DNA from: an uncultured Enterobacteriaceae bacterium
GTDB taxonomy: Bacteria > Pseudomonadota > Gammaproteobacteria > Burkholderiales > SG8-39
DNA: 64,000 bases
Reading direction: 5' to 3'
NCBI GenBank assembly: GCA_964393745.1
Contig: CAYMVA010000054.1
Span: 16,406-80,405 of the forward strand
The notes below the pieces were generated by a model that was not told where the DNA came from, ran no database searches, and was given only the letters and a program-made list of their open reading frames with translations. The position numbers and the translations under genes were made by a program. Of this stretch, positions 4,195 to 60,316 are shown one piece after another. Every line of letters begins with the position of its first letter. The first letter of the stretch is position 1.

Positions 4195-4217
4195 AGTGTA
4201 AAGTGTGACTTTACACT
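4195..4217. repeat. Palindromic repeat family A (AGTGTAAAGT-GTG-ACTTTACACT)
   Basis: Perfect 10-bp arms with a 3-nt loop; related copies at 24739, 48319, 54565 and 58310. Confidence 0.9.
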
Positions 4218-4353
4218 TGAGCCGATCTGCGCCCGGTGGCATGAAAGGACGAGCGCAAATCGACGCCTGTCGAACCGCCCGGATCCCTTGTCCTTGCAAT
4301 CCCAGCCCCGCGGAGTAGAGTCCTCGCCACGCGCACTTTTGAGGATGTACGCG

Positions 4354-5382
4354 ATGGGCAAGGAAGCGGGCAGCACGGCGATTTCGGGTCGCCGGAATTT
4401 CTTGAAAACCCTGACCGGCGTGGGCGCGGCGGGCGCGCTCGGATTCGGGCGGGAGCTGATGGCCGCAGAGCCGCCGCCGGAGACGAACCGGATTCGTATC
4501 CCCAAGATCCCGAACAACTGCTTTGCGCCGCAGTACATGGCCGAGGACCTGCTGCGCGGCGAGGGATTTTCGAGTCTTGAGTACGTTCCAGTAGCCGGGT
4601 CGCAGGCGACCTATACCGCGATTGCAAAGGGTGACGTTGACCTGACCATGTCGTTCAGTTCGGGGTTCGTGTTGCAGGCCGACGCGGGCGCGCCGATCAC
4701 GATGCTCGCCGGGATCCACCCTGGCTGCCTGGAGCTCATCGCGTCCCGCGAAATTCGCTCGATTCGCGACCTCAAGGGCAGATCGGTCGCGGTGCCCGCC
4801 CTGAATTCCGCAAACCACGGGTTTCTCGCCAGCATCGTAGGCCATGTCGGCCTGGACCCGCGCCGCGACATCAATTGGGTCGTGATCGAGCAGCAGGCGG
4901 AATTGATACGCCAGTTCGCCGAGGGCAAGGTGGATGCGACCATCGTCAATCCACCCGTTAGCTATGAGTTGCGGCCGAAGAAAATCGGGCACGTCCTCGT
5001 CAACATGACCACCGACCGGCCGTGGTCGCAGTACTTCTGTTGCGTGCTCGCCGGGAACCGCGAATTCATCCGCAAGAACCCGGTCGCGACGAAGCGCGCC
5101 ATGCGGGCGATCCTCAAGGGCGCGGACATGTGCAGCAACCCCGAGTCGACCGCCAAGCACCTGGTGAGCCGTGGCTTCTACAAGGATCCCGGCATCACGC
5201 TGCAGATGCTGCGCGACCTTCCCTACGCCCGCTGGCGCGACTTCGACACCGAGGACACGGTGCGCTACTACGCGCTGCGCCTGCACGAGGCCGGGATGAT
5301 CAAGTCCAGCCCCAAGAAGATCCTCACTGAAATGACCGATTTCCGGATCCTGAACCAGCTGAAGAAGGAGCTGAAGACATGA
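4354..5382 (+). CDS. NitT/TauT (SsuA/THI5-like) substrate-binding protein with Tat-like signal
   Basis: SGRRNFLK twin-arginine-like leader; AAEPPPET, AGIHPGC and DRPWSQYFCC motifs; start chosen from GAGGA RBS spacing. Confidence 0.8.
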   Translation: MGKEAGSTAISGRRNFLKTLTGVGAAGALGFGRELMAAEPPPETNRIRIPKIPNNCFAPQYMAEDLLRGEGFSSLEYVPVAGSQATYTAIAKGDVDLTMSFSSGFVLQADAGAPITMLAGIHPGCLELIASREIRSIRDLKGRSVAVPALNSANHGFLASIVGHVGLDPRRDINWVVIEQQAELIRQFAEGKVDATIVNPPVSYELRPKKIGHVLVNMTTDRPWSQYFCCVLAGNREFIRKNPVATKRAMRAILKGADMCSNPESTAKHLVSRGFYKDPGITLQMLRDLPYARWRDFDTEDTVRYYALRLHEAGMIKSSPKKILTEMTDFRILNQLKKELKT

Positions 5383-6380: not shown

Positions 6381-6970
6381 TGCTGCCGGCATATTGCATG
6401 CGGACCGTCCTGCTCGCGTTGCTCGCCGCGTGCGCCCTGAACGCCTGGGGCCACGGCTCTGCGGCAAAGGGGCGCCTCCCCACCGTGGGCGCCGCGCCCG
6501 ACTTTACGCTCACCAGTCAGAGCGGCGATCGGGTCGCGCTCACCGACCTGCGCGGCAAGGTGCTCGCGGTCACCTTCATCTACGCCACCTGCAAGGACAC
6601 CTGCCCGATCCTGACGGCGAAAATGGCCGTCATCCAGCGCAAGCTCGGCACCGATTTCGGGCAGCGGGTGCACTTCGCCTCGATCACCGTGGAGCCCGAA
6701 ATCGATACGCCCGCGGTGCTCAAGGCCTACGCAGTGGCTCACAGCGCCGACGTCGCGGGCTGGAGCTTCCTCACCGGGCCGAGCGCCGAGATCCAGGACA
6801 CGGTCAAGCGCTACGGCGCCTTCGCCAAGCGCGTCAAGCCCGGCGACGTGGACCACCTGTTCCTCACCTCGCTCATCGACCGCAAGGGGATGATGCGCGT
6901 GCAGTACCTCGGCTACCGCTTCGACCCGGACGAAATGCTCAGGGACCTGCGCGCCCTGCTGCGCGAGTGA
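6377..6970 (+). CDS. SCO1/SenC-family copper-binding protein
   Basis: Signal/anchor peptide; FIYATCKDTCP (CxxxC), ITVEPEIDT and conserved His (VDH); TTGA overlap. Confidence 0.88.
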   Translation: MMLPAYCMRTVLLALLAACALNAWGHGSAAKGRLPTVGAAPDFTLTSQSGDRVALTDLRGKVLAVTFIYATCKDTCPILTAKMAVIQRKLGTDFGQRVHFASITVEPEIDTPAVLKAYAVAHSADVAGWSFLTGPSAEIQDTVKRYGAFAKRVKPGDVDHLFLTSLIDRKGMMRVQYLGYRFDPDEMLRDLRALLRE

Positions 6971-8524: not shown

Positions 8525-8532
8525 CATGCTTT

Positions 8533-12233: not shown

Positions 12234-12300
12234 GGGGACAGACCCCGATTTTCGAGCATATCCCTCAGTAACTTAAGCAGAAAAATCGGGGTCTGTCCCC
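12234..12300. repeat. Inverted REP-like doublet GGGGACAGACCCC...GGGGTCTGTCCCC (family B), 67 bp
   Basis: Same ends and same 67-bp span as 28524..28590; AT-rich spacer. Confidence 0.88.
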
Positions 12301-12404
12301 GATTTTCCGGTTACATGCGGTTACAGACGTTGCATTTGCTACATCACACGGCGGGCCCGCTCGTGCGTCAATGTTCACGGGCACTCACAAGAAAGGAGCC
12401 TGCC

Positions 12405-18090: not shown

Positions 18091-18101
18091 TGTATTGTCG
18101 G

Positions 18102-18204
18102 GAAATCGAGGTCAGAGTTCGATTTCGACGAAACAAGGTCGATTTTCGGAAACCGGGGACAGACCCCGAAAATCGAGAACCAAGAAGAACCGGGGTCTGT
18201 CCCC
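18102..18204. repeat. Family B REP-like cluster: GAAATCGAGGTCAGAGTTCGATTTC hairpin plus GGGGACAGACCCC/GGGGTCTGTCCCC doublet
   Basis: Hairpin at 18102..18126; doublet arms at 18155..18167 and 18192..18204. Confidence 0.85.
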
Positions 18205-23875: not shown

Positions 23876-23983
23876 GCGGCTGCGCATCGCGCGGTCGCCC
23901 CAGCCGAAGCGGGCGCCGGGATTGCATGCGCTCCTATGGCATAATGGGCGCATAGGTGTCTATGTGTCTGTAAGGAGCCTGCC

Positions 23984-24283
23984 ATGGAGAACCCGGTCCG
24001 CTGGTCGCTGAAGGTGTCGAAGGAAACCGACGAAGCGCTGCGCGCCCACCTCGGCCAGGCGGGCGGGCGCAAAGGCGACCTTTCGAGATTCGTCCAGGAA
24101 GCGGTCCAGGCTCGGCTCAGGGCGGAGATGCGCGCGGCCGCAAAACCGGGGCGGCAGAGCCGCACCCGGGAAGGGCTGGCCGAGGCGCTGCAGGAGATCC
24201 GCGCGCGCACGCGGACACTGTCGAAGTCCCGCTTCGAGAAACTGGTGACGGAGGCCGTGGCCTACGCGCGCAAGCGACGCTGA
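23984..24283 (+). CDS. Putative ribbon-helix-helix antitoxin
   Basis: N-terminal RWSLKVS.ETD..LR..L strand-helix pattern; directly upstream of a PIN gene; AAGGAG RBS. Confidence 0.7.
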   Translation: MENPVRWSLKVSKETDEALRAHLGQAGGRKGDLSRFVQEAVQARLRAEMRAAAKPGRQSRTREGLAEALQEIRARTRTLSKSRFEKLVTEAVAYARKRR

Positions 24284-24738: not shown

Positions 24739-24761
24739 ACTGTAAAGTCACGCTTTACACT
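24739..24761. repeat. Family A palindrome (ACTGTAAAGT-CAC-GCTTTACACT)
   Basis: Near-perfect copy of the 4195 element in reverse orientation; intergenic. Confidence 0.88.
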
Positions 24762-24825
24762 TCGGCCGCTCGCGGCCGGGTACGGTCATTTGATTGTTCC
24801 CGAAACGCCGGCCAATCCCGGCGCA

Positions 24826-24853
24826 TCACTCGATTACCGCGTCCGCCCGATAC
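24826..24853 (-). other. 28-bp remnant of a paralogous substrate-binding-protein 3' end (reads Y-R-A-D-A-V-I-E-stop)
   Basis: Imperfect tandem duplicate of the final codons of the adjacent gene (R-A-D-R-V-I-E-stop), at a 28-bp offset. Confidence 0.7.
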
Positions 24854-25843
24854 TCATTCGATTACCCGGTCAGCTCGCAGCAGCAGCGACTGCGGGATGG
24901 TGATGCCGAGCGCTCTGGCAGTCTTCAGGTTGACGGCCAGCTCGAAACGCGTAGGCCGCTCGATAGGGACCTCGCCCGGCCGCGCACCTTGCAGAACTTT
25001 CCCCATGATGCCCCCTGCCTGCCGGAACATGCTCGAGAGGTGCGGCCCGTATGCCATCAACCCTCCGGCGTCGGCAAAATCGGGAAACGGCATCATGGCC
25101 GGCATTCTGTGCTTTAGCGCAAGCTCCGCGATTTCCTTCCGGGCCGAGTTGAACACGGGCGAGGACAGCGCCAGCAGCGCCTCCGCTTTTTGCGCTGCCG
25201 CCGATTCAAAAGCGCGCGCGAAATCCGCGGGACTGCGCGCCTCCAGTCGGAGCAGTTGCACCCGCATCGACGAACCCGCTGCCTCGGCTCCCTTCAAGAG
25301 GTTGGGTCCTGTGGCCGGGTCCCATAGCACGCCGATGCGGTTCAGTTTCGGCGCAGCTTCCTTCAGCAACTGGATCCACTTGCCGCCCAGCTCGGGAAAA
25401 TCGAGAAACAGCCCGGTGATGTTTCTCCCGGGGCGAGCCAGGGCTACGGCGAACCCATCCCCAATTGGATCCGATTCCAGATCTACCGCTACGATGGGTA
25501 TGACAGTGGTCGCATTCGCGGCCGCCCTCACTCCCGCTGGAGCCATGGCAAAAATCGCGTCCACCTTGGCGCGCACCAAATCGTTCGCCAGGGCAAGTAT
25601 TTCCTCCGTCTTCCCGGCTCGCACCCGATATTCGAACGTCAGGTTTGTCCCCTCCGTGAATCGGAGCTCGCGCAGCGCCTGCCGGAACGGATCAAAGTTC
25701 TGCCGGAACACCGCATCGTCCGGTGCGGGCCGGAGTACCCCAACGCGCCACACCTTCCCCGCCTGCTGCGCCTCGGCGGCGAACGGTGCGGCCAGAAGAG
25801 CGCCTGCAGAGAGCAGAAAACAACGGCGTTCGAGTTGCCCCAT
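24854..25843 (-). CDS. Orphan ABC substrate-binding protein (same family as 22895), convergent
   Basis: ERRCFLL leader; LARPGRNITG, AGGLMAYGP and PIERPTRFELAVN motifs; ends LLRADRVIE; GGAGGAG RBS. Confidence 0.85.
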   Translation of the reverse strand: MGQLERRCFLLSAGALLAAPFAAEAQQAGKVWRVGVLRPAPDDAVFRQNFDPFRQALRELRFTEGTNLTFEYRVRAGKTEEILALANDLVRAKVDAIFAMAPAGVRAAANATTVIPIVAVDLESDPIGDGFAVALARPGRNITGLFLDFPELGGKWIQLLKEAAPKLNRIGVLWDPATGPNLLKGAEAAGSSMRVQLLRLEARSPADFARAFESAAAQKAEALLALSSPVFNSARKEIAELALKHRMPAMMPFPDFADAGGLMAYGPHLSSMFRQAGGIMGKVLQGARPGEVPIERPTRFELAVNLKTARALGITIPQSLLLRADRVIE

Positions 25844-27626: not shown

Positions 27627-28520
27627 ATGAATGACCCCATGACCCAGACGAAGATAGACCAGCGCGTGCTCGACCTGTACGACGAGTATTGCCACGGCCG
27701 CATCGACCGGCGCAAGTTCCTGGGCCGCGCCGCCGCGCTCACCATCGGCGGCGTGTCGGCGCTCGCCATGGCGCAGGCGTTGCTGCCGCGTTACGCCCAG
27801 GCGCAGACGATTTCCTTCACCGACCAGCGGATCAAGGCGCGCTACGTGAGCTATGCGTCGCCCGGCGGCAACTCGGGCAACATGCGCGGCTACCTGGTGC
27901 AGCCTTCGGGCCAGGGGCCGTTCCCGGCGGTGCTGGTGATCCATGAGAACCGCGGGCTCAATCCTTACATCGAGGACGTGGCGCGGCGCGCCGCCGTGGA
28001 TGGGTTCCTCGCCCTTGCGCCCGACGGCTTGTCGCCGGTCGGCGGCTACCCGGGCAACGACGACGACGGCCGCGCACTGCAGGCCGGCCTCGACCAGGGC
28101 AAGTTGCGCACCGACATGCTGAACAGCGCGCGCTTCCTCAAGTCGCACCCGATGTCGAGCGGCAAGCTCGGCGCGACCGGCTTCTGCTCGGGCGGCGGCA
28201 CGACCAATTATTTGGCGGTTGCGCTGGGCGCCGACATGCAGGCGGGCGTGCCGTTCTACGGCCCGGCCGCCGGGACCGACGGCGTGCCGAAAATCAAGGC
28301 GGCGCTGCTCATCCAATATGCCGAGAACGACGAGCGCATCAACTCGATGTGGCCGGCGTTCGAGGCGGCATTGAAAGCGAACGGCGTCCCGCACCAGATG
28401 CACATGTACCCCGGCACCCAGCACGGCTTCCACAACAACTCCACACCGCGCTACAACGAGGCGGCGGCCAAGCTCTCGTGGGAGCGCAGCATCGCGTTCT
28501 TCAAACAGCACCTCGCCTAA
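27627..28520 (+). CDS. Dienelactone hydrolase family protein (YghX-like)
   Basis: DLYDEYCHGRIDRRKFL, IHENRGLNP, GFC-S-GG nucleophile elbow and HGFHNNSTPRY motifs. Confidence 0.88.
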   Translation: MNDPMTQTKIDQRVLDLYDEYCHGRIDRRKFLGRAAALTIGGVSALAMAQALLPRYAQAQTISFTDQRIKARYVSYASPGGNSGNMRGYLVQPSGQGPFPAVLVIHENRGLNPYIEDVARRAAVDGFLALAPDGLSPVGGYPGNDDDGRALQAGLDQGKLRTDMLNSARFLKSHPMSSGKLGATGFCSGGGTTNYLAVALGADMQAGVPFYGPAAGTDGVPKIKAALLIQYAENDERINSMWPAFEAALKANGVPHQMHMYPGTQHGFHNNSTPRYNEAAAKLSWERSIAFFKQHLA

Positions 28521-28523
28521 ATC

Positions 28524-28590
28524 GGGGACAGACCCCGATTATTCTGCCTAAGTAACAGATAGTTAAGCGAGAAAATCGGGGTCTGTCCCC
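28524..28590. repeat. Family B inverted doublet, 67 bp, filling the gap between convergent genes
   Basis: GGGGACAGACCCC at 28524..28536 and GGGGTCTGTCCCC at 28578..28590; abuts both stop codons. Confidence 0.88.
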
Positions 28591-28593
28591 GGT

Positions 28594-29229
28594 TTACTCC
28601 AGCAGGTCGTCGAGCGCGCCCTTGAGGTGCGCGCAGTCGGCCCACGCCAGCACGCGCCACTCGCCGCCCTCGATCACGATGCGATTAATGCCCGCGTTGG
28701 GAATGCGGAAGTCGCGCTGCGAGCCGAGCAGCCGGCCGGTGGCGCGGCGGAACAGCTTGTCGAGCACGCCGCCATGGGTGAAAACAAGAACGTTCTCTCC
28801 CGCATGACGCTCGGCAAGCTCCGCGATGCAGTGCAGCGAACGCTCGGCGAAGGCGCGCAGGCTCTCGCCGGTGCGAAAGTCGAACTCCGGCTCGCGCGCG
28901 AGGAACCTGGCGAATTCCTCCGGGTAGCGCGTCTCGCACTCGGCGTAGGTCAGCGTCTCGAAGACGCCGTAATGACGCTCCCGCAAGCGCTCGTCCAGCG
29001 CCACCTCGAGCCGCAGCGCCTGCGCCGCGGGTGCCGCGGTCCGATGAGCGCGTGACAAGTCGCTCGAATAGATGGCGCTGAAACGTTCGCTTGCGAGCGC
29101 CGCGCCGACCGCCTGCGCCTGGGCAAGGCCGATCAGGTTCAACGGGATGTCGAGCTGGCCCTGCACGCGCCGTTCGGCGTTCCAGGCGGTCTCGCCATGC
29201 CGCACGATGCACAGATTGGTCGCAACCAT
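28594..29229 (-). CDS. Histidine phosphatase (phosphoglycerate mutase-like)
   Basis: RHGETAWN, SSDLSRA, LRERHYG and THGG motifs. Confidence 0.88.
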   Translation of the reverse strand: MVATNLCIVRHGETAWNAERRVQGQLDIPLNLIGLAQAQAVGAALASERFSAIYSSDLSRAHRTAAPAAQALRLEVALDERLRERHYGVFETLTYAECETRYPEEFARFLAREPEFDFRTGESLRAFAERSLHCIAELAERHAGENVLVFTHGGVLDKLFRRATGRLLGSQRDFRIPNAGINRIVIEGGEWRVLAWADCAHLKGALDDLLE

Positions 29230-45535: not shown

Positions 45536-46618
45536 GTGCTGCCCGACGCCCCACGCCGCATCATCCACCTCGACATGGACGCGTTTTACGCTTCGGTCGA
45601 GCAGCGCGACGACCCGGCGCTGCGCGGCAAGCCGCTCGCGGTCGGCGGCTCGCCGCAGTCGCGCGGCGTGGTGGCGGCGGCGAGCTACGAAGCGCGCGCC
45701 TTCGGCGTGCGTTCGGCGATGCCGATGTCGCGTGCCCTCCGCCAGTGCCCCGAGCTGCTGATCGTGCGGCCCGATTTCGCGCGCTACCGCGCGGTGTCGC
45801 AGCAGGTGATGGAGATCCTGCGCTCGGCGACGCCGCTGGTGGAGCCGTTATCGCTCGACGAAGCCTACCTCGACGTTACGGAAAACCTGTGGGGCGAGCC
45901 GCTCGCGGTCAACGTGGCGAAGCGCCTCAAGCAGCGCATTCGCGACGAGCTCTCCCTGACCGCGTCGGCCGGCGTAGCGCCGAACAAGTTCCTCGCCAAG
46001 ATCGCTTCGGGCTGGCAGAAGCCCGACGGCCTGACGGTGATCGCGCCCGAGCGCGTCGAGCGCTTTCTGCAAAAACTGCCGGTCGAGGCGCTCTGGGGCG
46101 TAGGGCCGGTGACCGCAAAGAAGCTGCACGCGATCGGCATCGAGCGCCTGGTGCAGGTGCGCGACGCCGACCCGGTGCTGCTGCAGCGCACCGTGGGCAG
46201 CCTCGCCGACTGGCTCGCGCGCCTGGCGCAAGGCGACGATCCGCGCCCGGTGCGCCCCGACCGGCCGTGGAAATCGCGCTCGGCGGAAACCACCTATGCC
46301 GAGGACCTCGAAGAGCTGCGCGAGATGCGCGCCGAGATCGAGCGACTGGCGCGCCGCGTCGCGGAGATGCTGGAGAAAAAAAGCCTGTGCGCGCGCACCG
46401 TGACGATCAAGGTTCGCTATCCGGATTTCACCACCGTGACGCGCAGCCACACCGCCGATGCGCCGACGCGCGACGGCAGCGAAATCGCCTCGCGCGCGCT
46501 GGCGCTGCTCGAGCGCACCGACGCCGGCCGCAGGCCGGTGCGGCTGCTCGGCGTCGGCGCACACGAGCTTGCGGGCGACGGCGACTATCCGCCCGCTCCA
46601 GGCGTGCTGCCGTTCTGA
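45536..46618 (+). CDS. dinB: DNA polymerase IV
   Basis: IHLDMDAFYASVEQ, ASYEAR.FGV, SLDEAYLD, NKFLAK and WGVG motifs. Confidence 0.93.
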   Translation: MLPDAPRRIIHLDMDAFYASVEQRDDPALRGKPLAVGGSPQSRGVVAAASYEARAFGVRSAMPMSRALRQCPELLIVRPDFARYRAVSQQVMEILRSATPLVEPLSLDEAYLDVTENLWGEPLAVNVAKRLKQRIRDELSLTASAGVAPNKFLAKIASGWQKPDGLTVIAPERVERFLQKLPVEALWGVGPVTAKKLHAIGIERLVQVRDADPVLLQRTVGSLADWLARLAQGDDPRPVRPDRPWKSRSAETTYAEDLEELREMRAEIERLARRVAEMLEKKSLCARTVTIKVRYPDFTTVTRSHTADAPTRDGSEIASRALALLERTDAGRRPVRLLGVGAHELAGDGDYPPAPGVLPF

Positions 46619-46627
46619 GGGTGTCGC

Positions 46628-46875
46628 GACGCGCCGCCCGGTGCCGCCGCCTTCCCCAGTGCCGCGAAGAAAATCGGGGACAGACCTGAATTCTGGGTCT
46701 GTCCCCGATTTTCTTTACCCTCGCCTCATTGCCGCGGTCGTCGGCCGTCTGCGGAACTCGCCCCTCGCTGAAGCGGCTCGGGCTCGGACAATCCTCGCCG
46801 GATCTCCTTCGCCCGCGGCCCAGCTCCGCGCGGCACGATGGGGACCCCTTGCGGCGGCGCCGGGCGGCGCTCGTC
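46628..46875 (+). mobile_element. MITE-like element, left copy, with ~20-bp terminal inverted repeats and an internal family B palindrome
   Basis: Ends GACGCGCCGCCCGGTGCCGCCGC / GCGGCGGCGCCGGGCGGCGC(T)CGTC; internal palindrome at 46667..46715; no ORF of known function. Confidence 0.7.
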
Positions 46876-47055
46876 AGGGCGATTGCTCGCGCGTTGCGGA
46901 GAAAACCGTTTGCGCGCGATGTCCCTTTGCGGCCAAGGAAGGTCATTGGGAGCGAGACATTGTCAAGGGCAATTCAATTGGCCTTGCGTTCAAATGCGCC
47001 CGCTACCAACGTGCGACTCCAGCGAGTAATTTTGGTACCGGTAGAGAGATTGCTT

Positions 47056-47859
47056 TCATCGAAAAGCTGGCACTTGGCTATTCCCGCTGGCAAATACCGC
47101 ACTGCTTTGGCTGGGCTGTGAGATTGGAATTCGCGGCTTATACGCTTCAGCCCAAGCAATAAATTCCTTTACGTAACGCTCTCTCGCCTCGTCCTTGGAA
47201 ATTCGGTCACGGTGAAATGGGTTAGATACCCAAACTGTTTCGGCTGAGTCCAAATCACGCATTGCAGGATTGGCGGTTATGGTGACGGTCAGAAATCGGC
47301 GGGTAAGACTCTGCGCAAACGTTGCCGCTAGTACTGTTGTGGGAATATCGATATCTTCCTTCGTCATCCAACTACGAAGATCCGGGAAAAGACCAGTTCC
47401 CGGCGCGCGCAAGTAACCTACAAGGTGGTTTACCAACAGACAGTTAACCACGACGCCACCGGAATCGTAGGGATTCCTGTAAAGCGTGTCTGTACGCTTG
47501 CATGGATCATCGACGCTCAAAGATCCGACTCTCGCTGGAAGTGTGTCTTTTGAGGCCTCGATACGTATTGTCATTGCAATCCGAGAACCGACACGTTGGA
47601 CAAGGAAAATATCAAGCCTGATTGGTGCCATGTGCTGATCGCCGGGACTGAGCATTCGCATTTCTTGTTCCACGGCGCGAAATACCTGCCACTCGCCGCT
47701 AGGTAGTGGGATTTTCATACGTGCCTGCCCTTGACCCACGAACAGTTCATCTTTAATCACAGTCCCAGGTCGAAGCCCTATGTCGTCCGCGAGTGCCTGC
47801 GAACATATTGCTGCCGCACAAGCGAACGCCACGATCTTTGAAGTTGTTCGAATCGACAT
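47056..47859 (-). CDS. Low-GC orphan secreted hypothetical protein
   Basis: Long open frame in a visibly AT-richer segment; AAGGGGG RBS; signal peptide ending QALA-D; no recognisable family. Confidence 0.7.
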   Translation of the reverse strand: MSIRTTSKIVAFACAAAICSQALADDIGLRPGTVIKDELFVGQGQARMKIPLPSGEWQVFRAVEQEMRMLSPGDQHMAPIRLDIFLVQRVGSRIAMTIRIEASKDTLPARVGSLSVDDPCKRTDTLYRNPYDSGGVVVNCLLVNHLVGYLRAPGTGLFPDLRSWMTKEDIDIPTTVLAATFAQSLTRRFLTVTITANPAMRDLDSAETVWVSNPFHRDRISKDEARERYVKEFIAWAEAYKPRIPISQPSQSSAVFASGNSQVPAFR

Positions 47860-48040
47860 ACACGCATCCCCCTTTGTGACCATTGATTCGGCTAATTGCA
47901 AATCGGCGCGGCCGACGATGAATCTACGAAGCAGCAGCGAGCGTCGGAATCAGCGAGCGCAGAGCCGAGTTAACTCCGGTCGGCACTTAGGCTACACCCG
48001 GAATCGCCGCTATGGGTCGAAAGCGGCCGCCACTGTATCC

Positions 48041-48312
48041 GACGCGCCGCCCGGTGCCGCCGCACGGGGCCCCCATCGTGTCGCGCGGAGCCGAGCCGCG
48101 GGCGGAGGAAACCCGGCGAGGATTGCTCGAGCCCGAGCTGCTTCAGCGAGTGGCGAGTTCCGCAGACGGCCGACGCACGCGGCAATGAGGCGAGGGGAAA
48201 GAAAATCGGGGACAGAGCCCGATTTCGCTTCTGCAAATCGCTGTGGCCGAAATCGGGCTCTGTCCCCGATTTTCTTCGCGGCACTGGGGAAGGCGGCGGC
48301 ACCGGGCGGCGC
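48041..48312 (-). mobile_element. MITE-like element, right copy, inverted relative to the left copy
   Basis: Reverse complement aligns with 46628..46875 at about 90% by hand over the non-loop part; same terminal repeats; internal palindrome at 48199..48276 has a different spacer. Confidence 0.72.
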
Positions 48313-48318
48313 CACACG

Positions 48319-48350
48319 GCAAAAGTGTAAAGCGTGACTTTACACTTTGC
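48319..48350. repeat. Family A palindrome (AAAGTGTAAAGC-GTG-ACTTTACACTTT)
   Basis: Lies 6 bp outside the right MITE-like copy. Confidence 0.88.
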
Positions 48351-48364
48351 CTCGCTGCGCCCCG

Positions 48365-49843
48365 CTAGCCGGCGGCGGGATCGAGCGGGAAGATCGGCCG
48401 CCGCACGCGGCTGAACTTGAGCTGCGAGTAGTCCGAGGTGCACACGCCGGTGCCGGCGCACTCGACCACCGCCTTGGCGAGCGGCCCGAGGCCCGCGCGC
48501 CAGTGCACGCGGCTTTTGAGCATCAGGTAGCGCTTTTTTGCCGGCTCGAGGCCGAGGACGCGGAACGGGGCCATGTCGTAAGGCTCGGTGTGGCGCGAGA
48601 TCACTGCGATCTCGATTTTTCCGGTGTCGAGCACCGCCGAGGGGCCGAGATCACCTTCGGCCCCCTTCGCCATCGGCCCCTCATTGCGATATTTGCCCTC
48701 GACCAGGCGCTTCACCTTGCCGCTCACCGTGCGCGGCTTGCCCTTCAGCCCGAGCGAGGGCATGTCGAGCTTGCCGCCGAGCTCGAGCGTCACGTTGGCC
48801 CCCGCGCCTGCGGCCTGCATCTGCGCCACCGCCTTGGGATCGAAAACCGCGAACGCCGCCGCATCTTCGAGCCCGGCATCGAGCATCGCGCCGAGCACCG
48901 TCATCGTGTCCATGGTGCCGCCCGAGGCGCAGTTGTCGTAATGGTCGAGCAGCACCACCGGCCGCGCCTTGATTCCAGCGGCGCGGGCGAGCGATTTTTC
49001 CAGCAACTCGACCTCGTACACGAACCTGGCGCGATCGCGCCACGCCATGTCGAGCAGCTCGTCGCACTCGCGCCGCGCGCGCGCCGCATCGCCTTCGGTC
49101 ACCACCACGGCTGAAGAGCCCGCATAGGGGATGTCGGCGTGCGGGAAGCCCACGAAGAACGTCGCCGCGAGCGTTCCGGCTTTCTCCATGTCCTTGGCGC
49201 GCTGCTGGATTTCCTTGTTGGGCGAATCCAGGCTCGCCTGGCGCATCACGTGCGGCAGCATCGGGCGGTGGCCGAAAGCCATCGCAGGCTTCGATTTACC
49301 ATCCAGCATCGCGAGCACCGGCCGCCCAGCGCGCAGACCCGTGTCGTACATGTCCACGTGCGGATAGGTCTGGTAGCCCGCGAGCACGGTAGCGTGCTCC
49401 GCCATCGCGGGAAACAGATTGGTGTGCATGTCGAGCGCGACGCCGATCGGCACCTTCGGCGCCACTTTCCGGATGCGGCGCAGGAGTTCCCCCTCGCCGT
49501 CATCGAACCCCTCGGGCACCATCGCGCCGTGCAGGTCGAGCAGGACCGCATCGCAGCCCTTGGCCACGGCCTCCACGATCCGCCCCGCCATCCATTCGTA
49601 AGCGGCGCTCTCTACGCGGCCGCTCGGTGCCGCGTCGCCTGCCACCGGGAACACCGCGCTCGCGCCCGCTTTCTCCGCGAGATCGATGAACGCGCCGATT
49701 GCCGTGCCCGTGCCCTTGAATGCGGCGCGCACCGCCTCGCCTTGGTGTGGCTTCGGCCCGCCGTGCGCAAACCGTACCAGCGGCGTCGGCACCGGCGAGA
49801 AGGTGTTGGTTTCGTGCTTCATCTGCGCGATGACGAGGCGCAT
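48365..49843 (-). CDS. M81 (MlrC-like) metallopeptidase
   Basis: HETNTF, LDLHGAM, DMHTN, TYPHVD and LKSRVHWRA motifs. Confidence 0.88.
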   Translation of the reverse strand: MRLVIAQMKHETNTFSPVPTPLVRFAHGGPKPHQGEAVRAAFKGTGTAIGAFIDLAEKAGASAVFPVAGDAAPSGRVESAAYEWMAGRIVEAVAKGCDAVLLDLHGAMVPEGFDDGEGELLRRIRKVAPKVPIGVALDMHTNLFPAMAEHATVLAGYQTYPHVDMYDTGLRAGRPVLAMLDGKSKPAMAFGHRPMLPHVMRQASLDSPNKEIQQRAKDMEKAGTLAATFFVGFPHADIPYAGSSAVVVTEGDAARARRECDELLDMAWRDRARFVYEVELLEKSLARAAGIKARPVVLLDHYDNCASGGTMDTMTVLGAMLDAGLEDAAAFAVFDPKAVAQMQAAGAGANVTLELGGKLDMPSLGLKGKPRTVSGKVKRLVEGKYRNEGPMAKGAEGDLGPSAVLDTGKIEIAVISRHTEPYDMAPFRVLGLEPAKKRYLMLKSRVHWRAGLGPLAKAVVECAGTGVCTSDYSQLKFSRVRRPIFPLDPAAG

Positions 49844-54033: not shown

Positions 54034-57000
54034 TCAGGGCGGCCACGTGCGCCAGCCCTTGAGCAGCGGGAAATACAGTGCCGGGCGCGCGCCGCCGAGC
54101 GCCGCCGCGTAGCGCTCCAGTTGCGCGCGGTAGCGCTCGTGCTCCTGGTCGAGAAAGCTCTCGACGTCTCCGCCCTTGTGAGCGCCGGTCTTGAAATCTA
54201 CTACCCAGCGCGCGCCGCTTTCGTCGGTCAGCACGCGATCGATGATCTGGCGCCCGGCTGCGGTGCGGATGCGGTATTCGCTCCGCGCCTCGGGATGCTG
54301 GCCGAGGAGCCAGCGGCCGCGCTCGTCGCTGATCGAGTTCTTGAGGGCGTTCGTGACGAGCTCGGCGGCGCGCTCGAGTTCACCTGCCGGGACGCCTCGC
54401 TGGCCCAGCTCGGCGCGGAACCGGGCCCGCAGCCGCTCGACGCGCTCCGCGTTCCAGCCGTCGAGAGCGTCCTCGGCGATCCGCTGCAGCCAGCGGTGTA
54501 CGACAGTACCGGCGTGCCGCGCAGTTTCGCCAGCCCAGGAGAACTCGATCGGGGCTGCAGCGGCCAAAGTGTAAAGTGGGACTTTACACTTTGCCGCCTC
54601 GGGGGCGGTTGGGAGCGTCCATGCGGCCGGGATGCGGTGGAGAACATCGCTTTCACCCCCCACCCTCACCCCTGGCCCCTCTCCCGCAGAGCGGGAGAGG
54701 CGAACCACAGCAGCAAACTGCCAGACCTTGGCGAGCAGCGAGCGCTTGCCGGGGGGCCTCGGTGAGCCGTCGTCGTCGAGCTTCACACAGCCTAGCAGGT
54801 GGATGCGCTGCTTGGCGCGCGTCGAGGCAACGTAGAGCAGACGCCCGGCTTCGGTGTCCTCGGCCTCGCGCTCGAGCGCTTTCAGGTAGTCGTAGGCGCG
54901 ATTCTCCTCGGCGCCGGTCTCGTGGATCGGCGCGAGCAGCAGCTGCCCATCCGCGCGCGCTTTCCACAGGAAGAGCGGCGGCTCGCCGTGCGCCGGCGTG
55001 CGGTCGAGCCCCGGGATGATGACGCTGTCGAACTCGAGCCCCTTCGCCTTGTGGATGGTCATGATTTGCAGGCGCTCGCCGGCCTCGAGATCGGGGAGTG
55101 CATAGAGCTGCTCGAGCGCTTCGGCGAGCACTTCGGGGTCCTCGATGTCGCCCGCTTCCTCGAGACGCTCGAGCTCGTCGAGGTAGATCTCGACATCCTC
55201 GAGTTCGGTGCGGTCGTCCACGCAGGCCGGGCCGCCGAGCGCGAGCCAGCAGCCCTCTACGCGGTCGCGCAGCGTGCCGCGCAGGCGGTGAATCATCGCC
55301 TGGCCGAGCGGCTGCCAAACGCGCATGAGGCGCTTGCGTCCGTCTTCGGATAGCGCGCACACGACGCGGTCGTCGTTCATAAGCTCCCAGATGGCGCGGG
55401 CCCCCGCCTGCGCGGGGGTGACGGATGGGGTCGCAGGGGTGACGAGTGCATGCAGGTCCGCGAGGGTCAGCCCGCACCACGGCGCGCGCAGGATCGCGAG
55501 CCAGGCGATGCGGTCGGCGGGGTGCATGAGCGCGCGCGTAAGCGCGTAGAGGTCCTGCACCGCCTGCTTCTCGCCGAGCCGCTCGATCTCGATGGCGCGG
55601 AAACGCAGGCCCGCCCCCTTGAGGGCCGGCACGATCTCGTCCAAGTGCCTGCGGTTGCGCACCAGGATGGCGCAGGTTCCTTCCGCCTTTGCCGCGAGCG
55701 CCGCAACCTGAGCGGCTTCCGACTCGCGCTCTTCAAACAGATGCCACTCGCACGCCTCGCCTTCGAGCGGCGCATGGTGCGGCGTCGAGCGCGCATACGG
55801 CACCGCGCCCGCGCTTTCGTCCTCCGCTTGCGGGAGCACGCTCGGGAAGGTCGCGTTCACCCACTCGACCACGCGCGCCTGCGAGCGGAAGTTGGTGGAG
55901 AGCGTGAGCGGCTCGAGCGTGACGGAACCCAGCCCTGCGCGCCGCGCGTGCAGGAACAGCGCCACCTCGGCCTCACGGAAGCGGTAGATGGACTGCATCG
56001 GGTCGCCCACCAGGAACAGCGTGCGATCGGAGCCCCGCTTTTCGTCGCCTCGTTCCCAGCCCGCGGTCAGGCGCTCGAGCAACTCCCACTGGCTGATCGA
56101 GGTGTCCTGGAACTCGTCCACCAGGATGTGGTGGATGCGGTGGTCGAGCGCGAGCAGCAGGTCGGTCGGCGAGTCGGGGGAGCCGAGCGCGCGCAGGGCA
56201 CCCTGCGCGATTTCCGTGAAGTCACACTTTGCCCTTTCGGCGAATACCACCTTGAGCTGCGCCGCGGCGAGCGGCAGCAGCGCGATGATCGCCTCCAACG
56301 CCTCCCATTGCGCCGCGCTGTAGCTGGCGGGCGGCATGGCGGGGAGCGCCGCGAGCGCGGCGCGCAGCGGCTCGTTGCCGGCGAGCGCCTGCGCCTGCTT
56401 GTTCTTCTTGCGCCACTCGCCCTTCTTGGTGAGAAGCTCCTGCGCGAGCGCTTCGCTTGCTTCCGGCAGCATTGTGCGCGCGCTGTCCAGCAGCCGCTGC
56501 CGCTCGCGCGCGAGGCCCTGCTCAATCTCGGCGCGCGAAGGCGGGTTGCCGGTCTTGCGCAGCCACTGGTCGCGCCGCGCGAGCATCGCGGCGAGAAGCT
56601 GCGTCGCCAGCGCAGCATTGTTGTCCAGGTGCGCGAGGAAGCGCTCAACCGGCGCGCCCAGGCCGGCGACGGTGCGTGCGGCAGCTTCGCGGTACATCTC
56701 GCCCGCGTCCTCCACAGTCTCGGGCTGGGCGCCGAACTTGGCGAGCACCGGCATCTGGCGCGTGAGCGAAGCGCAGAAAGCGTCGATCGTCATGATGCGC
56801 AGGCGGTGCGCGATGTCGCCAGCGTTGGGCAGCGCCTTGAGCACGCGCGCGCGCATCTCCGCGGCGGCTTTGCGCGTGAAGGTGATGGCGAGCACTTCCT
56901 CGGGCTTCGCGGCGCGCTCGAGCAGCGCGAGGTAGCGCTTGACCAGCAGGTCGGTCTTGCCCGAGCCCGCGGGCGCCTGCACGATGAACGAGCGCGCCGG

Positions 57001-57045
57001 GTCGAGGGCGCGCTCGCGCACCGCCTGGTCGGCTATCATGTCCAT
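54034..57045 (-). CDS. addA: AddA-like UvrD helicase with C-terminal PD-(D/E)XK nuclease
   Basis: QAPAGSGKT, ITFTRKAA.EM, LVDEFQDTS, VGDPMQSIYRFR, IMTIHKAKGLEFD, LYVASTRA and IDRV...VDFKT motifs. Confidence 0.85.
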   Translation of the reverse strand: MDMIADQAVRERALDPARSFIVQAPAGSGKTDLLVKRYLALLERAAKPEEVLAITFTRKAAAEMRARVLKALPNAGDIAHRLRIMTIDAFCASLTRQMPVLAKFGAQPETVEDAGEMYREAAARTVAGLGAPVERFLAHLDNNAALATQLLAAMLARRDQWLRKTGNPPSRAEIEQGLARERQRLLDSARTMLPEASEALAQELLTKKGEWRKKNKQAQALAGNEPLRAALAALPAMPPASYSAAQWEALEAIIALLPLAAAQLKVVFAERAKCDFTEIAQGALRALGSPDSPTDLLLALDHRIHHILVDEFQDTSISQWELLERLTAGWERGDEKRGSDRTLFLVGDPMQSIYRFREAEVALFLHARRAGLGSVTLEPLTLSTNFRSQARVVEWVNATFPSVLPQAEDESAGAVPYARSTPHHAPLEGEACEWHLFEERESEAAQVAALAAKAEGTCAILVRNRRHLDEIVPALKGAGLRFRAIEIERLGEKQAVQDLYALTRALMHPADRIAWLAILRAPWCGLTLADLHALVTPATPSVTPAQAGARAIWELMNDDRVVCALSEDGRKRLMRVWQPLGQAMIHRLRGTLRDRVEGCWLALGGPACVDDRTELEDVEIYLDELERLEEAGDIEDPEVLAEALEQLYALPDLEAGERLQIMTIHKAKGLEFDSVIIPGLDRTPAHGEPPLFLWKARADGQLLLAPIHETGAEENRAYDYLKALEREAEDTEAGRLLYVASTRAKQRIHLLGCVKLDDDGSPRPPGKRSLLAKVWQFAAVVRLSRSAGEGPGVRVGGESDVLHRIPAAWTLPTAPEAAKCKVPLYTLAAAAPIEFSWAGETARHAGTVVHRWLQRIAEDALDGWNAERVERLRARFRAELGQRGVPAGELERAAELVTNALKNSISDERGRWLLGQHPEARSEYRIRTAAGRQIIDRVLTDESGARWVVDFKTGAHKGGDVESFLDQEHERYRAQLERYAAALGGARPALYFPLLKGWRTWPP
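54565..54593. repeat. Family A palindrome in frame within addA (encodes KCKVPLYTL)
   Basis: CAAAGTGTAAAGT-GGG-ACTTTACACTTTG; perfect 13-bp arms; AT-rich island in a GC-rich CDS. Confidence 0.9.
54663..54700. repeat. Family D element (CCCTCACCCC...CCTCTCCCGC-AGA-GCGGGAGAGG) in frame within addA
   Basis: Perfect 10-bp stem at 54678..54700 preceded by a C-rich tract; encodes RLSRSAGEGPGVR(V). Confidence 0.8.
55398..55443. repeat. Family C element (GTCACCCCCGCGCAGGCGGGGGCCC on minus strand) plus a partial copy, in frame within addA
   Basis: Encodes VTPATPSVTPAQAG; same hairpin as 21402..21427. Confidence 0.8.
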
Positions 57046-57059
57046 CGAGGCACACCCCG

Positions 57060-57593
57060 ATGAGAGTCATTCCCAGCGACACCATGCCGGCAATCGACGC
57101 GCGGCTCGCAGGCGGCGGCCGCTGGGCGCTCGCCTCCGAAAAAGCCGAGAAGCTCGCGCTGCTCGCCTTCTACCGCGGAATTTTCTGCCCCATATGCCGC
57201 GGCTGGGTGAGCGAGCTCGACCGCATGGTGCCGGAGTTCGAGCAGCGCGGCGTGTCGGTGATCGCCCTTTCCTGCGACCGCAAGGAATCGGCCGAAAAAG
57301 CAGTCAAGGAATGGGGCCTCGCCAACCTGCGCGTCGGCTATCGGCTCGACCCCGAGGACGCGAGGAAAGCGGGCCTGTACATCTCCGAAGGCCGCGGCGT
57401 GAATCCGTCGAGCAACGAAAAAGAGCCGATGCTGTTCACCGAGCCGGCGGTGCTCGCGGTGCTGCCCGAAGGCGAGTTGTACGCGGGGTGGATCCAGTCG
57501 ACGCCCTATGCGCGCCCGCGCCTCGCCGACATTCTCGCCGCAGTGGACAGTTTCGTGTCGAAGGATTTGCCGGCGCCGCGCGGCTCGGCGTAG
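57060..57593 (+). CDS. AhpC/TSA-like redoxin (CxxC) inserted antisense between addB and addA
   Basis: FYRG.FCPICR, ALSCD, GLYIS.G and F.EPA motifs. Confidence 0.8.
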   Translation: MRVIPSDTMPAIDARLAGGGRWALASEKAEKLALLAFYRGIFCPICRGWVSELDRMVPEFEQRGVSVIALSCDRKESAEKAVKEWGLANLRVGYRLDPEDARKAGLYISEGRGVNPSSNEKEPMLFTEPAVLAVLPEGELYAGWIQSTPYARPRLADILAAVDSFVSKDLPAPRGSA

Positions 57594-57622
57594 GCATTGA
57601 GCGATCGCGACGAGCCCGCTCC

Positions 57623-60316
57623 TCATGGCTGGTCCTCGGTCTCGGCGTCCGTCTGCAGCGCGCCGATGCGCTCGTGCACCCGGCACAGCGGCTGCAGGTC
57701 GCACTGGCGGCAAGTCTTCAGGCCCTCCTTCGGGTCCACCTGCGCCGCGCCCGAGGCAAAACCTTGCGCGAGCGTATCGAGCTCTTTCTTCCAGCCGGCG
57801 ATCAAGTCGCCCCAGTTGTCGTAGCGCGTGAGCCCCGGCACTGCATCCGGCTCGCGCGAGTAGCCCATGAAGCGCATCTCGCCGCGCCGCACCTTGGCGT
57901 AGGCAACCGCCGCGACTTCCTCGGGCGCGTTCACCGCGTAGAGCGGCAGTTGCGGCTCCGTGGGCCGCTCGCCCATCCAGGCTCGCGGCGAGAGCTGCCT
58001 GCCGGTCTTGTAGTCGATGAGCAGGTGCGCAGCCGCATCCTTGCCATCGGAGAGGCGGTCCATGCGATCGATGCGGCCCGAGAACTCGAGCCCGCCGGCA
58101 GTGAGCGTGCGCTTGTCCTCGCGCGCCACCACTTCGAAGTCTTCGCGTCCCTTCTCCAACTCGAGCCAGTCGCGCGCCAAGTGCTCCAGTCGCGCGCGTT
58201 CCAGCTCGGCAAAGCGCCCTTCGAGCACGCCCGGCCGCCGCTCGCGCAGGCGCGCCACGGCAGCGGCGGCCGCGCGGCCTATCGCTGCCGCCAAGTCCGC
58301 AGGGGTCAGACTGTAAAGCGTCGCTTTACACTTGAGCTCGCCCCACACGCCTGCCATCAGGGCATGCAGCAGCGTGCCGCGCTCGAGGTCGTCGAGCCCC
58401 GCAGCGGGCGCCCCAAGCGCTTCCGCCCCGAGGCGGTGGCGCGCGAACGCCCGAAACGGGCACGCGGACTGGTCGGCGAGTACGCGCGTGCCGCCGCGCA
58501 CGCGCTTGTCGGCGAAGCGCGGCGCAATCCCATCGGCGGCCGATTCGAGGCACCGCGCTGCGAACAGCGCATCGCGGTAGCGCGCAAATTGCGGCAGCTC
58601 GGGCTTGCGCTCCGCAATTGTGGCGATGAGCGGGCTGGGCAGCAGGTTGCGGTCCTCCTCGCGCAGCGCATGCGACACGATCACCTCGTCGGCCGCGGCC
58701 AGCCAGCCCTCGGTGATTCGCCGGTCGAGCGCGATCGAGCCCTCGGCCGAGGCCTGCGGGATGTCCGCCTTCTTTTGCAGCGCCACGGCGATGAATGGAT
58801 TGGGCCGCGCGTGCAGCGGCCAGGCTTCGTCGGTCAATCCGCTCACCCACAGGCCGTCAAACTCCAAACCCGCGGATTCGAGGATACCGAGCACCTGCAC
58901 CGGCGCTTCCGGCGACTCGGGTTGGAACAGCATCTCCGCGCACAGGCGCTCGAGATGCGCGAGCGCATCGGCACGGTCCATCGCCGGCACGACGCGCTCG
59001 AGCTTCGCCAGCTCGCCCAGCATTTCATGGAGCTTGGCGCGCGCCTGGTACTCGTCCGAATCGAGTGCGCGCTCGCCAGGAAAGCCCGCCGCCTCGAGCA
59101 GCGCCGTAAAATGCGCCGCGCACTGGTGCGGCGAGCGCACGCGCGCGCGGTTGGCCTCGGCGCAGTTGTAAAGCGCCTCCAGCCTTTCGCGCAACAGCGC
59201 GCAAGGCTCGGCCGCAGCGACCAGCCTCGCAAGCGTCACACGCGCGGGCAGCGTCCTGCGCAGCTCCGCATCCAGGCGCGCGCGCGGCGCGAGCTCGCTC
59301 TCGGCGCCGCCGAGGAAGGGCGAGCGCAGCACCCGGCTGGCGAGCGCGAACTCGACCTCGCCCGCAGCGAGTTCCAGGATCGCGAGCGCCGCGTGCACGA
59401 CAGGCGCGTCCGAGAGCGGCGCGCCAAGCGAAACGTTGAAGGGCATCGGCTCCCTGCTCGCGCCGGGCAGGTTGCAGCCGGGCTGCATGAAGCGCGAGAA
59501 CACGCGCACCACTTCCCGGCGGCGCTTCGCCAGATCGGGAATGACGACTCCAAAGCGGAGGTCTGAACTCCCAACCTTACCCTGCTCGAGTCGCGCGCGC
59601 GCCCACGTTGCCGCTGCCTCCAATTCCTCGCGCGCTGAGGCGAACGCGGCGCGCATCGGGATCGCATTACGCTTGCGTGGACCGCACTCGCGCAGCTCGA
59701 TTCCCTGCGCGGCGCAGGCCTGCAGGAAGTCGCTCGCCTGCGGCGGCAGGATGTCGAAGCCGTAGGCGACGAGCAGCTGCGGCTTGCGCAGCGCGCGCTC
59801 GGGGAGCAGGCCCGCCACCACATCGGGCAGGCGCGCGCTATCGGTGTCAGCGCCGCAGCGCGCAGCGTAATCCTTTGCCCACGCGGCGAACGCGGCGCTG
59901 TCTTCGCTGCCCGGGAATTTCTCCAGCGCTCCGTCGATTCTCCAGGCGTGCGCGAGGCGCCATGCGTCCATCGCCTGCGCTGCGGCCTGCGCCGGAGAAA
60001 GCAGCGCGTCGCTCCACGCGCTCGCCGCGATCGCCGCCTCCCATAACTGCCGCTCCTGTACCGGCGTGAGGAGATGCGGCGCGGGTGTAGTCTCCGAGAA
60101 CAGCGCGTCTTCCCACAGGCGCTCCACGAATGCGGCGAGGGGCAGGATGTCGGCGTCCTCCCAGACCGCGAGGCCTCTTCCGATCTGGCTGGCATAGAAC
60201 TCGCGTCCCAGCTCCTGCGCCAGGCGCTGGTTGGGCGTGACCACGGTGGCGCGCGCGGCGTGCCCTCCGGCGAGCCGCGCGAAAAGTTCCTGCTTGGTGA
60301 GCGCAGCGGCCTGCAT
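57623..60316 (-). CDS. addB: AddB-like PD-(D/E)XK nuclease subunit with Fe-S staple cysteines
   Basis: VVTPNQRLA, QSACPFRAFA, GRIDRMD, IDYKTG, PQLPLYA and CRQCDLQPLCR motifs. Confidence 0.82.
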   Translation of the reverse strand: MQAAALTKQELFARLAGGHAARATVVTPNQRLAQELGREFYASQIGRGLAVWEDADILPLAAFVERLWEDALFSETTPAPHLLTPVQERQLWEAAIAASAWSDALLSPAQAAAQAMDAWRLAHAWRIDGALEKFPGSEDSAAFAAWAKDYAARCGADTDSARLPDVVAGLLPERALRKPQLLVAYGFDILPPQASDFLQACAAQGIELRECGPRKRNAIPMRAAFASAREELEAAATWARARLEQGKVGSSDLRFGVVIPDLAKRRREVVRVFSRFMQPGCNLPGASREPMPFNVSLGAPLSDAPVVHAALAILELAAGEVEFALASRVLRSPFLGGAESELAPRARLDAELRRTLPARVTLARLVAAAEPCALLRERLEALYNCAEANRARVRSPHQCAAHFTALLEAAGFPGERALDSDEYQARAKLHEMLGELAKLERVVPAMDRADALAHLERLCAEMLFQPESPEAPVQVLGILESAGLEFDGLWVSGLTDEAWPLHARPNPFIAVALQKKADIPQASAEGSIALDRRITEGWLAAADEVIVSHALREEDRNLLPSPLIATIAERKPELPQFARYRDALFAARCLESAADGIAPRFADKRVRGGTRVLADQSACPFRAFARHRLGAEALGAPAAGLDDLERGTLLHALMAGVWGELKCKATLYSLTPADLAAAIGRAAAAAVARLRERRPGVLEGRFAELERARLEHLARDWLELEKGREDFEVVAREDKRTLTAGGLEFSGRIDRMDRLSDGKDAAAHLLIDYKTGRQLSPRAWMGERPTEPQLPLYAVNAPEEVAAVAYAKVRRGEMRFMGYSREPDAVPGLTRYDNWGDLIAGWKKELDTLAQGFASGAAQVDPKEGLKTCRQCDLQPLCRVHERIGALQTDAETEDQP
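58302..58333. repeat. Family B half-site (GGGGTCAGAC) fused to a family A palindrome, in frame within addB (encodes KCKATLYSLTP)
   Basis: GGGGTCAG-ACTGTAAAGC-GTC-GCTTTACACTT. Confidence 0.85.

Follow-up and report, generated by a model that had tools for sequence, protein, structure and literature searches.

A strictly conserved palindrome dispersed in a betaproteobacterial clade as a putative binding site of HigA-type proteins

HigA of Proteus vulgaris is an obligate dimer, the two helix-turn-helix (HTH) motifs of which bind a 21-bp operator at its two inverted repeats; this operator overlaps the -35 and -10 elements (PMC12266136). The palindrome TGTAAAG-N5-CTTTACA, which is present in a 64-kb stretch of contig CAYMVA010000054.1 (the whole of this stretch is referred to as the window) and in related genomes, resembles such operators (P. 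vulgaris Rts1 hig O1/O2; PMC12266136) in being an inverted repeat of ~19-21 bp, in its association with a dimeric Cro/C1-type HTH antitoxin and in its overlap with a promoter. The known HigA operators occur once or twice per operon, whereas the present palindrome occurs in dozens of copies or more away from promoters, including inside genes. The family works most like the parS/ParB, NBS/Noc, matS/MatP and SBS/SlmA site families, which are scattered 12-16-bp palindromes that often lie in genes, are selected at the DNA level and are read off promoters by a dimeric HTH-type protein; those families, however, tolerate mismatches and comprise ~10-70 copies. To our knowledge, no family of this type derives from a toxin-antitoxin operator, and HigA proteins are not known to act in this way. 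The dispersed copies are tentatively considered here to be an amplified family of putative binding sites for a HigA-type HTH dimer, an explanation that we favor at a probability somewhat short of even.

A pattern search of the window for TGTAAAG-N5-CTTTACA reveals five exact matches (Table 1). In dinucleotide-preserving shuffles (n = 100), only 0.01 matches are expected by chance at ≤2 mismatches, and a total of six is reached in 0 of the 100 shuffles. The window has a G+C content of 64-71% throughout, and CTT directly follows the palindrome on the 3′ side in all five copies. When both strands are counted, the window has 12 occurrences of the half-site TGTAAAG, 10 of them inside the five palindromes, which have a density of ~1 per 13 kb. 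Genes were called from G+C at third codon positions (GC3) together with Pfam; as stated in the original prediction, which was made from the letters of the window, three copies are intergenic and two are in frame in addA and addB. The starts 48319 and 54565 given there are also correct, as they mark the longer arms (GCAAAAG.../CAAAG...) of copies 3 and 4.

Homologues of AddB place the window in an uncultured, Burkholderiales-like clade of betaproteobacteria. A total of 185,579 species genomes were scanned for TGTAAAG-N5-CTTTACACTT, and 72 loci with matches were listed, the window's own genome not among them, so the counts given here are lower bounds. Among the matches listed, the 70%-GC metagenome-assembled genome (MAG) CAZVHU01 (GCA_964627075.1) carries at least 32 copies on 27 contigs, and two more copies, in addB and addA on its contig 77, bring the number to at least 34. 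The AddB homologue on that contig (P0005) is 74% identical to the AddB of the window; few genes of CAZVHU01 match the window, at 67-75%, which indicates that the MAG is a relative and not the window's own genome. The copies in the MAG lie mostly at gene 3′ ends and in gaps between convergent genes, in line with the prediction of a dispersed family rather than a few promoter operators. The addB, addA and pgi copies, as well as copies 1 and 2 of the window, are kept among the loci L079/L080 (88-94% nucleotide identity), L086 and L170. No copy is present in 79 loci that encode LigB relatives at ≤72% identity or in L166, the nearest outgroup locus, which lacks the motif. The many copies in relatives and their absence from these loci reveal that the palindrome family is real, multi-copy and confined to one clade.

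Within this clade, the addA, addB and pgi copies are older than the split of lineages that are 74% identical in AddB. Intergenic copies turn over between lineages, as a copy in L058 is absent in the window and copy 3 is missing from the corresponding place in L079 and L075. No presence/absence polymorphism of an intergenic copy that would distinguish insertion from substitution is found; copies 1 and 2 are simply kept in the only close relatives located (L086 and L170), and the more distant loci are unalignable or have other neighbors. A scan of viral contigs yields two single palindrome copies and no hig genes, and a full-text literature search for the motif strings returns nothing relevant. 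GCA_964627075.1 is labeled "uncultured Enterobacteriaceae bacterium", yet its G+C content is ~70% and the named AddB homologues of the window are from Burkholderiales/Betaproteobacteria MAGs; the Enterobacteriaceae label looks wrong.

Among the matches listed, the palindrome directly precedes a higB-higA or higA operon in at least 13 loci. The bacteria concerned are unrelated (Comamonadaceae and other Burkholderiales, Rheinheimera/Chromatiaceae, Pseudomonas and Turicimonas); the operons encode a PF05015 toxin and a Cro/C1 HTH antitoxin, and the palindrome is often extended at these operons to AAAGTGTAAAG-N5-CTTTACACTTT. In CAZVHU01, a solitary 97-aa gene (L016:5075-5368) starts with an ATG 8 nt downstream of one copy (L016:5377); its product belongs to the HigA family (TIGR02607, 77 bits; cut-off 47.7) and has P. 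vulgaris HigA as its best PDB match. Five more GC-rich contigs from other samples encode a HigA of 89-91% identity with the palindrome in the same place and no higB. The palindrome overlaps the spacer and the -10 of the higA promoter (TTGCAA-17-TACACT), and the ATG lies a few bases past the -10. Its location on hig promoters in at least 13 loci and on the promoter of the clade's solitary higA identifies the palindrome, at the level of sequence, as the predicted operator of one subfamily of HigA, a Cro/C1-type HTH protein. This identity as a HigA-antitoxin promoter site was missed in the original prediction.

The operators of characterized HigA/GraA proteins were also compared; the sequence checked (TAACGTTA, P. 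putida GraA) differs, so the match is to an uncharacterized HigA subfamily. The spacing of the LexA (CTGT-N8-ACAG) and TyrR (TGTAAA-N6-TTTACA) boxes does not fit. In most contigs, the gene downstream of the solitary higA-like gene, in the same orientation, encodes a cyclic-nucleotide-binding ion channel (Ion_trans + cNMP_binding). The region that holds both genes was examined at L016:3802-5368 (minus strand), L083 and L084; merT and HMA genes lie between the two in L083. The ion-channel gene may be a local target of the HigA-like regulator.

In 313 kb of clade sequence, 45 copies have perfect arms, none has one mismatch, one has two and three have three, compared with two sequences with three mismatches in the reversed-sequence control. 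Part of the 313-kb set was picked by exact match, and the unselected part (the window, L075, L079 and the secondary copies in MAG loci) agrees. The copies are perfect or absent, and the decay typical of repetitive extragenic palindromic (REP) elements is lacking. The half-site profile reads g-C-C-n-R-A-G/c before TGTAAAG and Y-S-W after it; the 19-bp core TGTAAAG-YSWSR-CTTTACA is invariant in its arms and usually has R-A-G/c before it and the complement after it. According to this profile, the central five bases form a symmetric Y-S-W-S-R instead of a free loop. No compensatory covariation is observed, as positions 8/12, 9/11, -1/+1 and -3/+3 combine as under independence with no Watson-Crick excess. 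The possibility that the complementary GC-rich flanks are compensatory stems was dropped because the half-site profile represents a shared flank consensus and the variable symmetric positions do not covary.

Approximately 10 of 40 copies are inside open reading frames (ORFs) with Pfam-supported domains, namely addA, addB, pgi, hrpA, a CoA ligase gene, prpD and a NUDIX-ThiE fusion. When 60 AddB proteins are aligned, CKATLYSL is in register with RTKSRLDSL, KSKAVLGAL and similar segments; it is found only in the five closest proteins, and the 55 motif-less orthologues align to it without a gap. The 13 residues of AddA from CKVPLYT onward face 13 different residues in the motif-less L166, again with no gap, and the same is observed at the palindrome for the acetoacetate-CoA ligase homologue compared with PDB 4WD1 and for PrpD compared with PDB 5MVI, where QQQRILDVS is replaced by QCKAILYTC. 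A comparison of PGI with solved structures shows no gap for the M. tuberculosis structure and a one-residue gap beside the motif for a second one. Because none of the five testable genes (those for AddB, AddA, PGI, the CoA ligase homologue and PrpD) has a gap at the palindrome, the in-gene copies replaced stretches of equal length and are not insertions.

These alignments with motif-less orthologues and structures contradict the in-frame insertion of the Rickettsia type that had been proposed for the in-gene copies. Rickettsia palindromic elements are insertions of roughly 100-150 bp that add residues to the protein. The present family is similar to them in that a palindromic repeat is translated in frame inside functional proteins; its core, however, is only 19 bp, and no residue is added by any of the five in-gene copies that could be compared.

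The in-gene copies occupy tolerant segments of the proteins. As had been noted, the palindrome can be read as C-K-x-x-L-Y-[TS] from either strand; additionally, a second open frame, [ST]-V-K-x-x-F-T, is used equally in relatives (five copies in each frame), and the third frame holds a TAA stop. Five lineages with protein identities as low as 74% share exactly the same arms in addB, whereas variation is seen in the loop (CGACG or CCACG) and at the synonymous sites on either side. The codons of the arms are rare in the genome (TGT 11%, AAA 21%, CTT 5.5% and AGT 2.4%). The original prediction had regarded KCKxxLY in orthologues without the DNA palindrome as evidence against its proposal, and in the AddB alignment the peptide is absent from such orthologues. 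The invariance of the arms at rare-codon synonymous sites, the variation of the loop and the neighboring codons, and the use of both open frames reveal that selection acts on the DNA and that the encoded peptide is a by-product. In the annotation of these proteins, CKxxLY[TS] and [ST]VKxxFT are therefore not to be taken as protein motifs.

Among the ~27 intergenic copies with callable neighbors, most are located 3-60 nt past a stop codon, and eight or nine are between convergent genes; in tandem gene pairs, the copy is closer to the upstream stop than to the downstream start. Genes hold ~25% of the copies, a share much smaller than that of coding sequence in such genomes (near 88%). The higA copy is the single intergenic copy at a clear promoter, and the five copies in the window differ from it in that they are not at promoters. 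Scans of the three intergenic copies in the window detect no promoter-like hexamers and no T-run, and none of the three is terminator-like.

In the explanation that we favor, a dimer of the clade's toxin-less HigA-like protein, or of a close paralogue, would read the copies as duplex DNA, with one monomer bound to each TGTAAAG half-site. Being bound would be what selection keeps, hence the perfection of each copy, and the distribution of the copies suggests that they survive after stops and between convergent genes, where a bound repressor would do the least harm. The in-gene copies would have arisen in place by base substitutions in tolerant loops and linkers, leaving the length of the protein unchanged. 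A reading as duplex DNA would account for the strict symmetric half-site including its "loop", the lack of pairing covariation, the conservation at synonymous sites, the use of both frames and the avoidance of promoters. We infer the putative occupancy of the dispersed copies by HigA from homology and from the analogy with P. vulgaris HigA; candidate outcomes of binding are a transcriptional roadblock or insulation at gene ends, the buffering of free autoregulated HigA, and chromosome organization.

Several observations weigh against binding by HigA as the explanation. The solitary higA-like gene is not found within the 64-kb window, where no HigA is present among the ~50 genes scanned with Pfam. 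In three genomes of Myxococcota (Plesiocystis, a Myxococcales MAG and a Polyangia MAG; 67-72% GC), the palindrome is just upstream of an orthologous FAD_binding_6/NAD_binding_1/Fer2 reductase gene (L031:4782, L045:4452, L053:2404 and 3549, the second L053 copy being at the 3′ end of the reductase gene) and no hig gene is nearby; it is probably a conserved operator of another regulator there, which indicates that HigA is not the only possible reader. The sites of ordinary transcription-factor regulons are degenerate, and a motif with 14 specific bp that is perfect or absent is atypical of them. A motif-less addB orthologue matches 7 of the 14 arm bases at the position of the copy; approximately seven substitutions would thus be required for each new in-gene site, yet no intermediates are visible, which is hard to explain. 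The tight placement after stops could equally reflect a role at transcript 3′ ends. Additionally, the intergenic copies share a loose longer flank consensus (~CACCCGGCCGCnAGCGGCCG-RAG) that is itself a small GC hairpin, and their flank similarity (89 pairs at a score ≥11 compared with 8 control pairs) fits a copied unit similar to REP elements or miniature inverted-repeat transposable elements (MITEs), so that some intergenic copies may have spread as copies of a ~60-75-bp unit. The long hairpins predicted for the intergenic copies fit such a unit as well; in the window, copies 1-4 are each at the apex of a long predicted hairpin (z -2.9 to -4.4; copy 1 -4.3, copy 2 -3.7), whereas the most conserved copy, that in addB, forms no hairpin in the predicted mRNA fold (z = -0.9).

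The original prediction described an unrecognized REP-like family that colonizes coding sequence; a real family with approximately a quarter of its copies in genes is confirmed, whereas neither the insertion mechanism nor REP-type decay is. In its full form, this explanation is a mobile hairpin of the REP/REPIN or MITE type, in which the ~60-75-bp unit is copied into intergenic DNA by a REP-associated tyrosine transposase (RAYT) or another enzyme, the AT-rich core is the recognition hairpin and the in-gene copies are a by-product. The flank consensus far above control, the predicted hairpins of four of the five window copies and the turnover of intergenic copies between lineages (the L058 copy and copy 3) are consistent with such an element, as is the general likeness to REP/REPIN families, which are also short dispersed palindromes with hairpin potential and many copies per genome at gene 3′ ends and in convergent gaps. 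However, such a hairpin is quite unlikely as the source of the family, given that the five testable in-gene copies are gap-free, that about one quarter of the copies are not extragenic, that no swarm of decaying copies is found despite the age of the addA, addB and pgi copies, which are older than the split at 74% AddB identity, and that the paired positions do not covary. The palindrome also lacks the doublet organization of REPINs and has an AT-rich core in a GC-rich genome, and no target-site duplications or clean presence/absence indels are seen, although no informative genome pair was found either. No transposase or RAYT is present among the ~50 window genes scanned, as the original prediction had it for mobilizing enzymes in the window. 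An element that acts as RNA, in which a transcribed hairpin at mRNA 3′ ends blocks 3′ exonucleases, acts as a terminator or serves as a site for binding or cleavage by an RNA-binding protein, would explain why intergenic copies are 3-60 nt past stops and nearer to the upstream stop in tandem pairs, and the hairpins predicted for copies 1-4 are strong. It is nevertheless very unlikely: the three intergenic window copies have neither a T-run nor a terminator score, a scan for Rfam families returns no match in the window, pairing is not preferred at the variable symmetric positions, the addB copy is conserved base for base without a predicted hairpin, an AU-rich apex is odd for stability in a 68%-GC genome, and the copy on the higA promoter acts as DNA.

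Perfect copies could also build up in the absence of any function per site if uptake, repair or recombination favored palindrome-bearing fragments, with substitution and conversion spreading the sequence into genes as well. The DNA uptake sequences (DUS) of Neisseria, the uptake signal sequences (USS) of Pasteurellaceae and cyanobacterial HIP1 share with the palindrome a clade-specific distribution, the dominance of perfect copies, a location after genes, and indel-free copies in tolerant protein segments in several frames. Uptake sequences are reportedly biased toward genome-maintenance genes, and several hosts of the palindrome (addA, addB, hrpA and the NUDIX fusion) act on nucleic acids. 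The hosts also include pgi, prpD and the CoA ligase gene, however, so no enrichment is shown. DUS, USS and HIP1 are 8-12 nt long with hundreds to thousands of copies at ~1 per kb, and DUS and USS are not palindromes, whereas the family described here consists of 7-N5-7 palindromes spaced at roughly one per 13-50 kb, a density 10-50 times below that of DUS or USS, and the half-site by itself shows no over-representation. The clade has no known competence system, and none was searched for. Such molecular drive is considered highly improbable. That the copies form an ordinary small regulon under a local transcription factor, or are chance matches, has a probability close to negligible; one copy is truly a promoter operator (that of higA), but chance predicts 0.01 matches, a single MAG has at least 34 copies, the copies are between convergent genes and inside genes rather than at promoters, and the intergenic window copies have no promoter-like hexamers.

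A more far-reaching form of the HigA explanation is that a HigA that has lost its toxin was domesticated to bind DNA across the whole chromosome. Its operator would have been amplified to around a hundred strictly conserved sites, with new sites arising in place even within housekeeping genes (addA, addB, pgi, prpD and hrpA), where rare codons and altered residues would be the price. We regard this form as somewhat unlikely. If it were true, the domesticated HigA would constitute a new genome-punctuation or insulator system derived from a toxin-antitoxin module, much as Noc/NBS derives from ParB/parS, and would connect toxin-antitoxin regulators with genome-wide families of repeats and binding sites. 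It would also provide a concrete candidate protein for a dispersed palindrome, which is not known for most REP-like families. A DNA signal that overrides codon usage and amino acids in conserved enzymes without indels represents a clean system for measuring the selection that DNA motifs exert on proteins.

The features of the window are listed in Table 1. The ~50 genes scanned with Pfam have ordinary functions in metabolism and transport, and many encode TctC/Bug receptors; a scan for tRNA genes finds none in the window.

Table 1. Copies of the palindrome in the window and the two genes that host copies
Feature	Sequence	Position	Strand	Start of 23-nt form	Context
Copy 1	TGTAAAGTGTGACTTTACA	4197-4215	.	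4195	Intergenic; 10 nt past the stop of a LigB-type dioxygenase gene (3327-4187, +)
Copy 2	TGTAAAGTCACGCTTTACA	24741-24759	.	24739	Between convergent PIN (VapC-like) and ABC substrate-binding genes
Copy 3	TGTAAAGCGTGACTTTACA	48326-48344	.	48324	21 nt past the stop of a MlrC-type peptidase gene
Copy 4	AAG TGT AAA GTC CCA CTT TAC ACT TTG (KCKVPLYTL)	54570-54588	-	54568	In frame in addA
Copy 5	AAG TGT AAA GCG ACG CTT TAC AGT CTG (KCKATLYSL)	58312-58330	-	58310	In frame in addB
Near-copy	TGTAAAGCGTGTCTGTACG	47478-47496	.		Two arm mismatches; inside a low-GC ORF (47056-47901, -)
addA		54034-57045	-		UvrD-type helicase with C-terminal PD-(D/E)XK nuclease; host of copy 4
addB		57623-60316	-		PD-(D/E)XK nuclease family, C-terminal Cys cluster; host of copy 5

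Copy 1 is ~140 nt from the start of the next gene and is kept with an identical loop in L086, a relative of 90% identity. Copy 2 is 44 nt past the stop of the PIN gene and 95 nt past that of the ABC substrate-binding gene, with a GGCCGC-TC-GCGGCC hairpin on its right flank. Copy 3 has longer arms (GGCAAAAG / CTTTGCC) and is at the edge of a 1.75-kb insertion that is absent in relatives. Copy 4 corresponds to about residues 819-827 of the 1003 residues of AddA, in the linker ahead of the nuclease domain, and its orthologue is present in L079 and in L075/CAZVHU01; copy 5 corresponds to residues 662-670 of the 897 residues of AddB. The near-copy at 47478, the sole copy with one or two mismatches in the 313 kb of clade sequence, is either decaying or nascent.

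The PIN-domain toxin gene next to copy 2 (VapC-like, TIGR00305; 24284-24697) is not accompanied by a hig gene, and the 112-aa ORF upstream of it (23945-24283), which has no family match, presumably encodes its antitoxin. At 24790-24860, read on the minus strand, the ending of the ABC substrate-binding gene is repeated, as a second remnant of it lies after the 3′ end of the gene (CGGGTAATCGAATGA ... CGGTAATCGAGTGA). L170 carries a second paralogous binding-protein gene at the place of this remnant, and the window seems to have lost that paralogue by recombination between the two.

The 1.75-kb insertion (46619-48364) separates the convergent genes dinB (45536-46618, +) and mlrC (48365-49843, -), which abut in the relative L075. 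It contains two inverted repeats of ~250 nt (46622-46870 and 48044-48321; 88-94% complementary) that enclose the low-GC ORF (~0.5), the product of which has a signal-peptide-like N-terminus and no Pfam/NCBIfam match. Between addB and addA, an AhpC/redoxin gene (57060-57593, +) is present on the opposite strand in the window, L079, L080 and L167, and the CAZVHU01 lineage has a 115-aa ORF on the same strand in its place; addA is called as one 1159-aa gene in L076 versus 115 + 1021 aa in L075, L077 and L078.

A second hairpin repeat, GAAAATCGGGGACAG...CTGTCCCCGATTTTC, has 14 matches in the window at ≤3 mismatches (1.3 expected). These matches are clustered at 12239-12307, 18101-18162, 28517-28597, 46669-46713 and 48201-48274, with only 4980 and 42534 outside the clusters. 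The second repeat decays in the ordinary manner (0-3 mismatches), unlike the TGTAAAG palindrome in the same window, and looks like a classical REP-like family; it is also found beside TGTAAAG copies in the related MAG (L058, L063 and L049).

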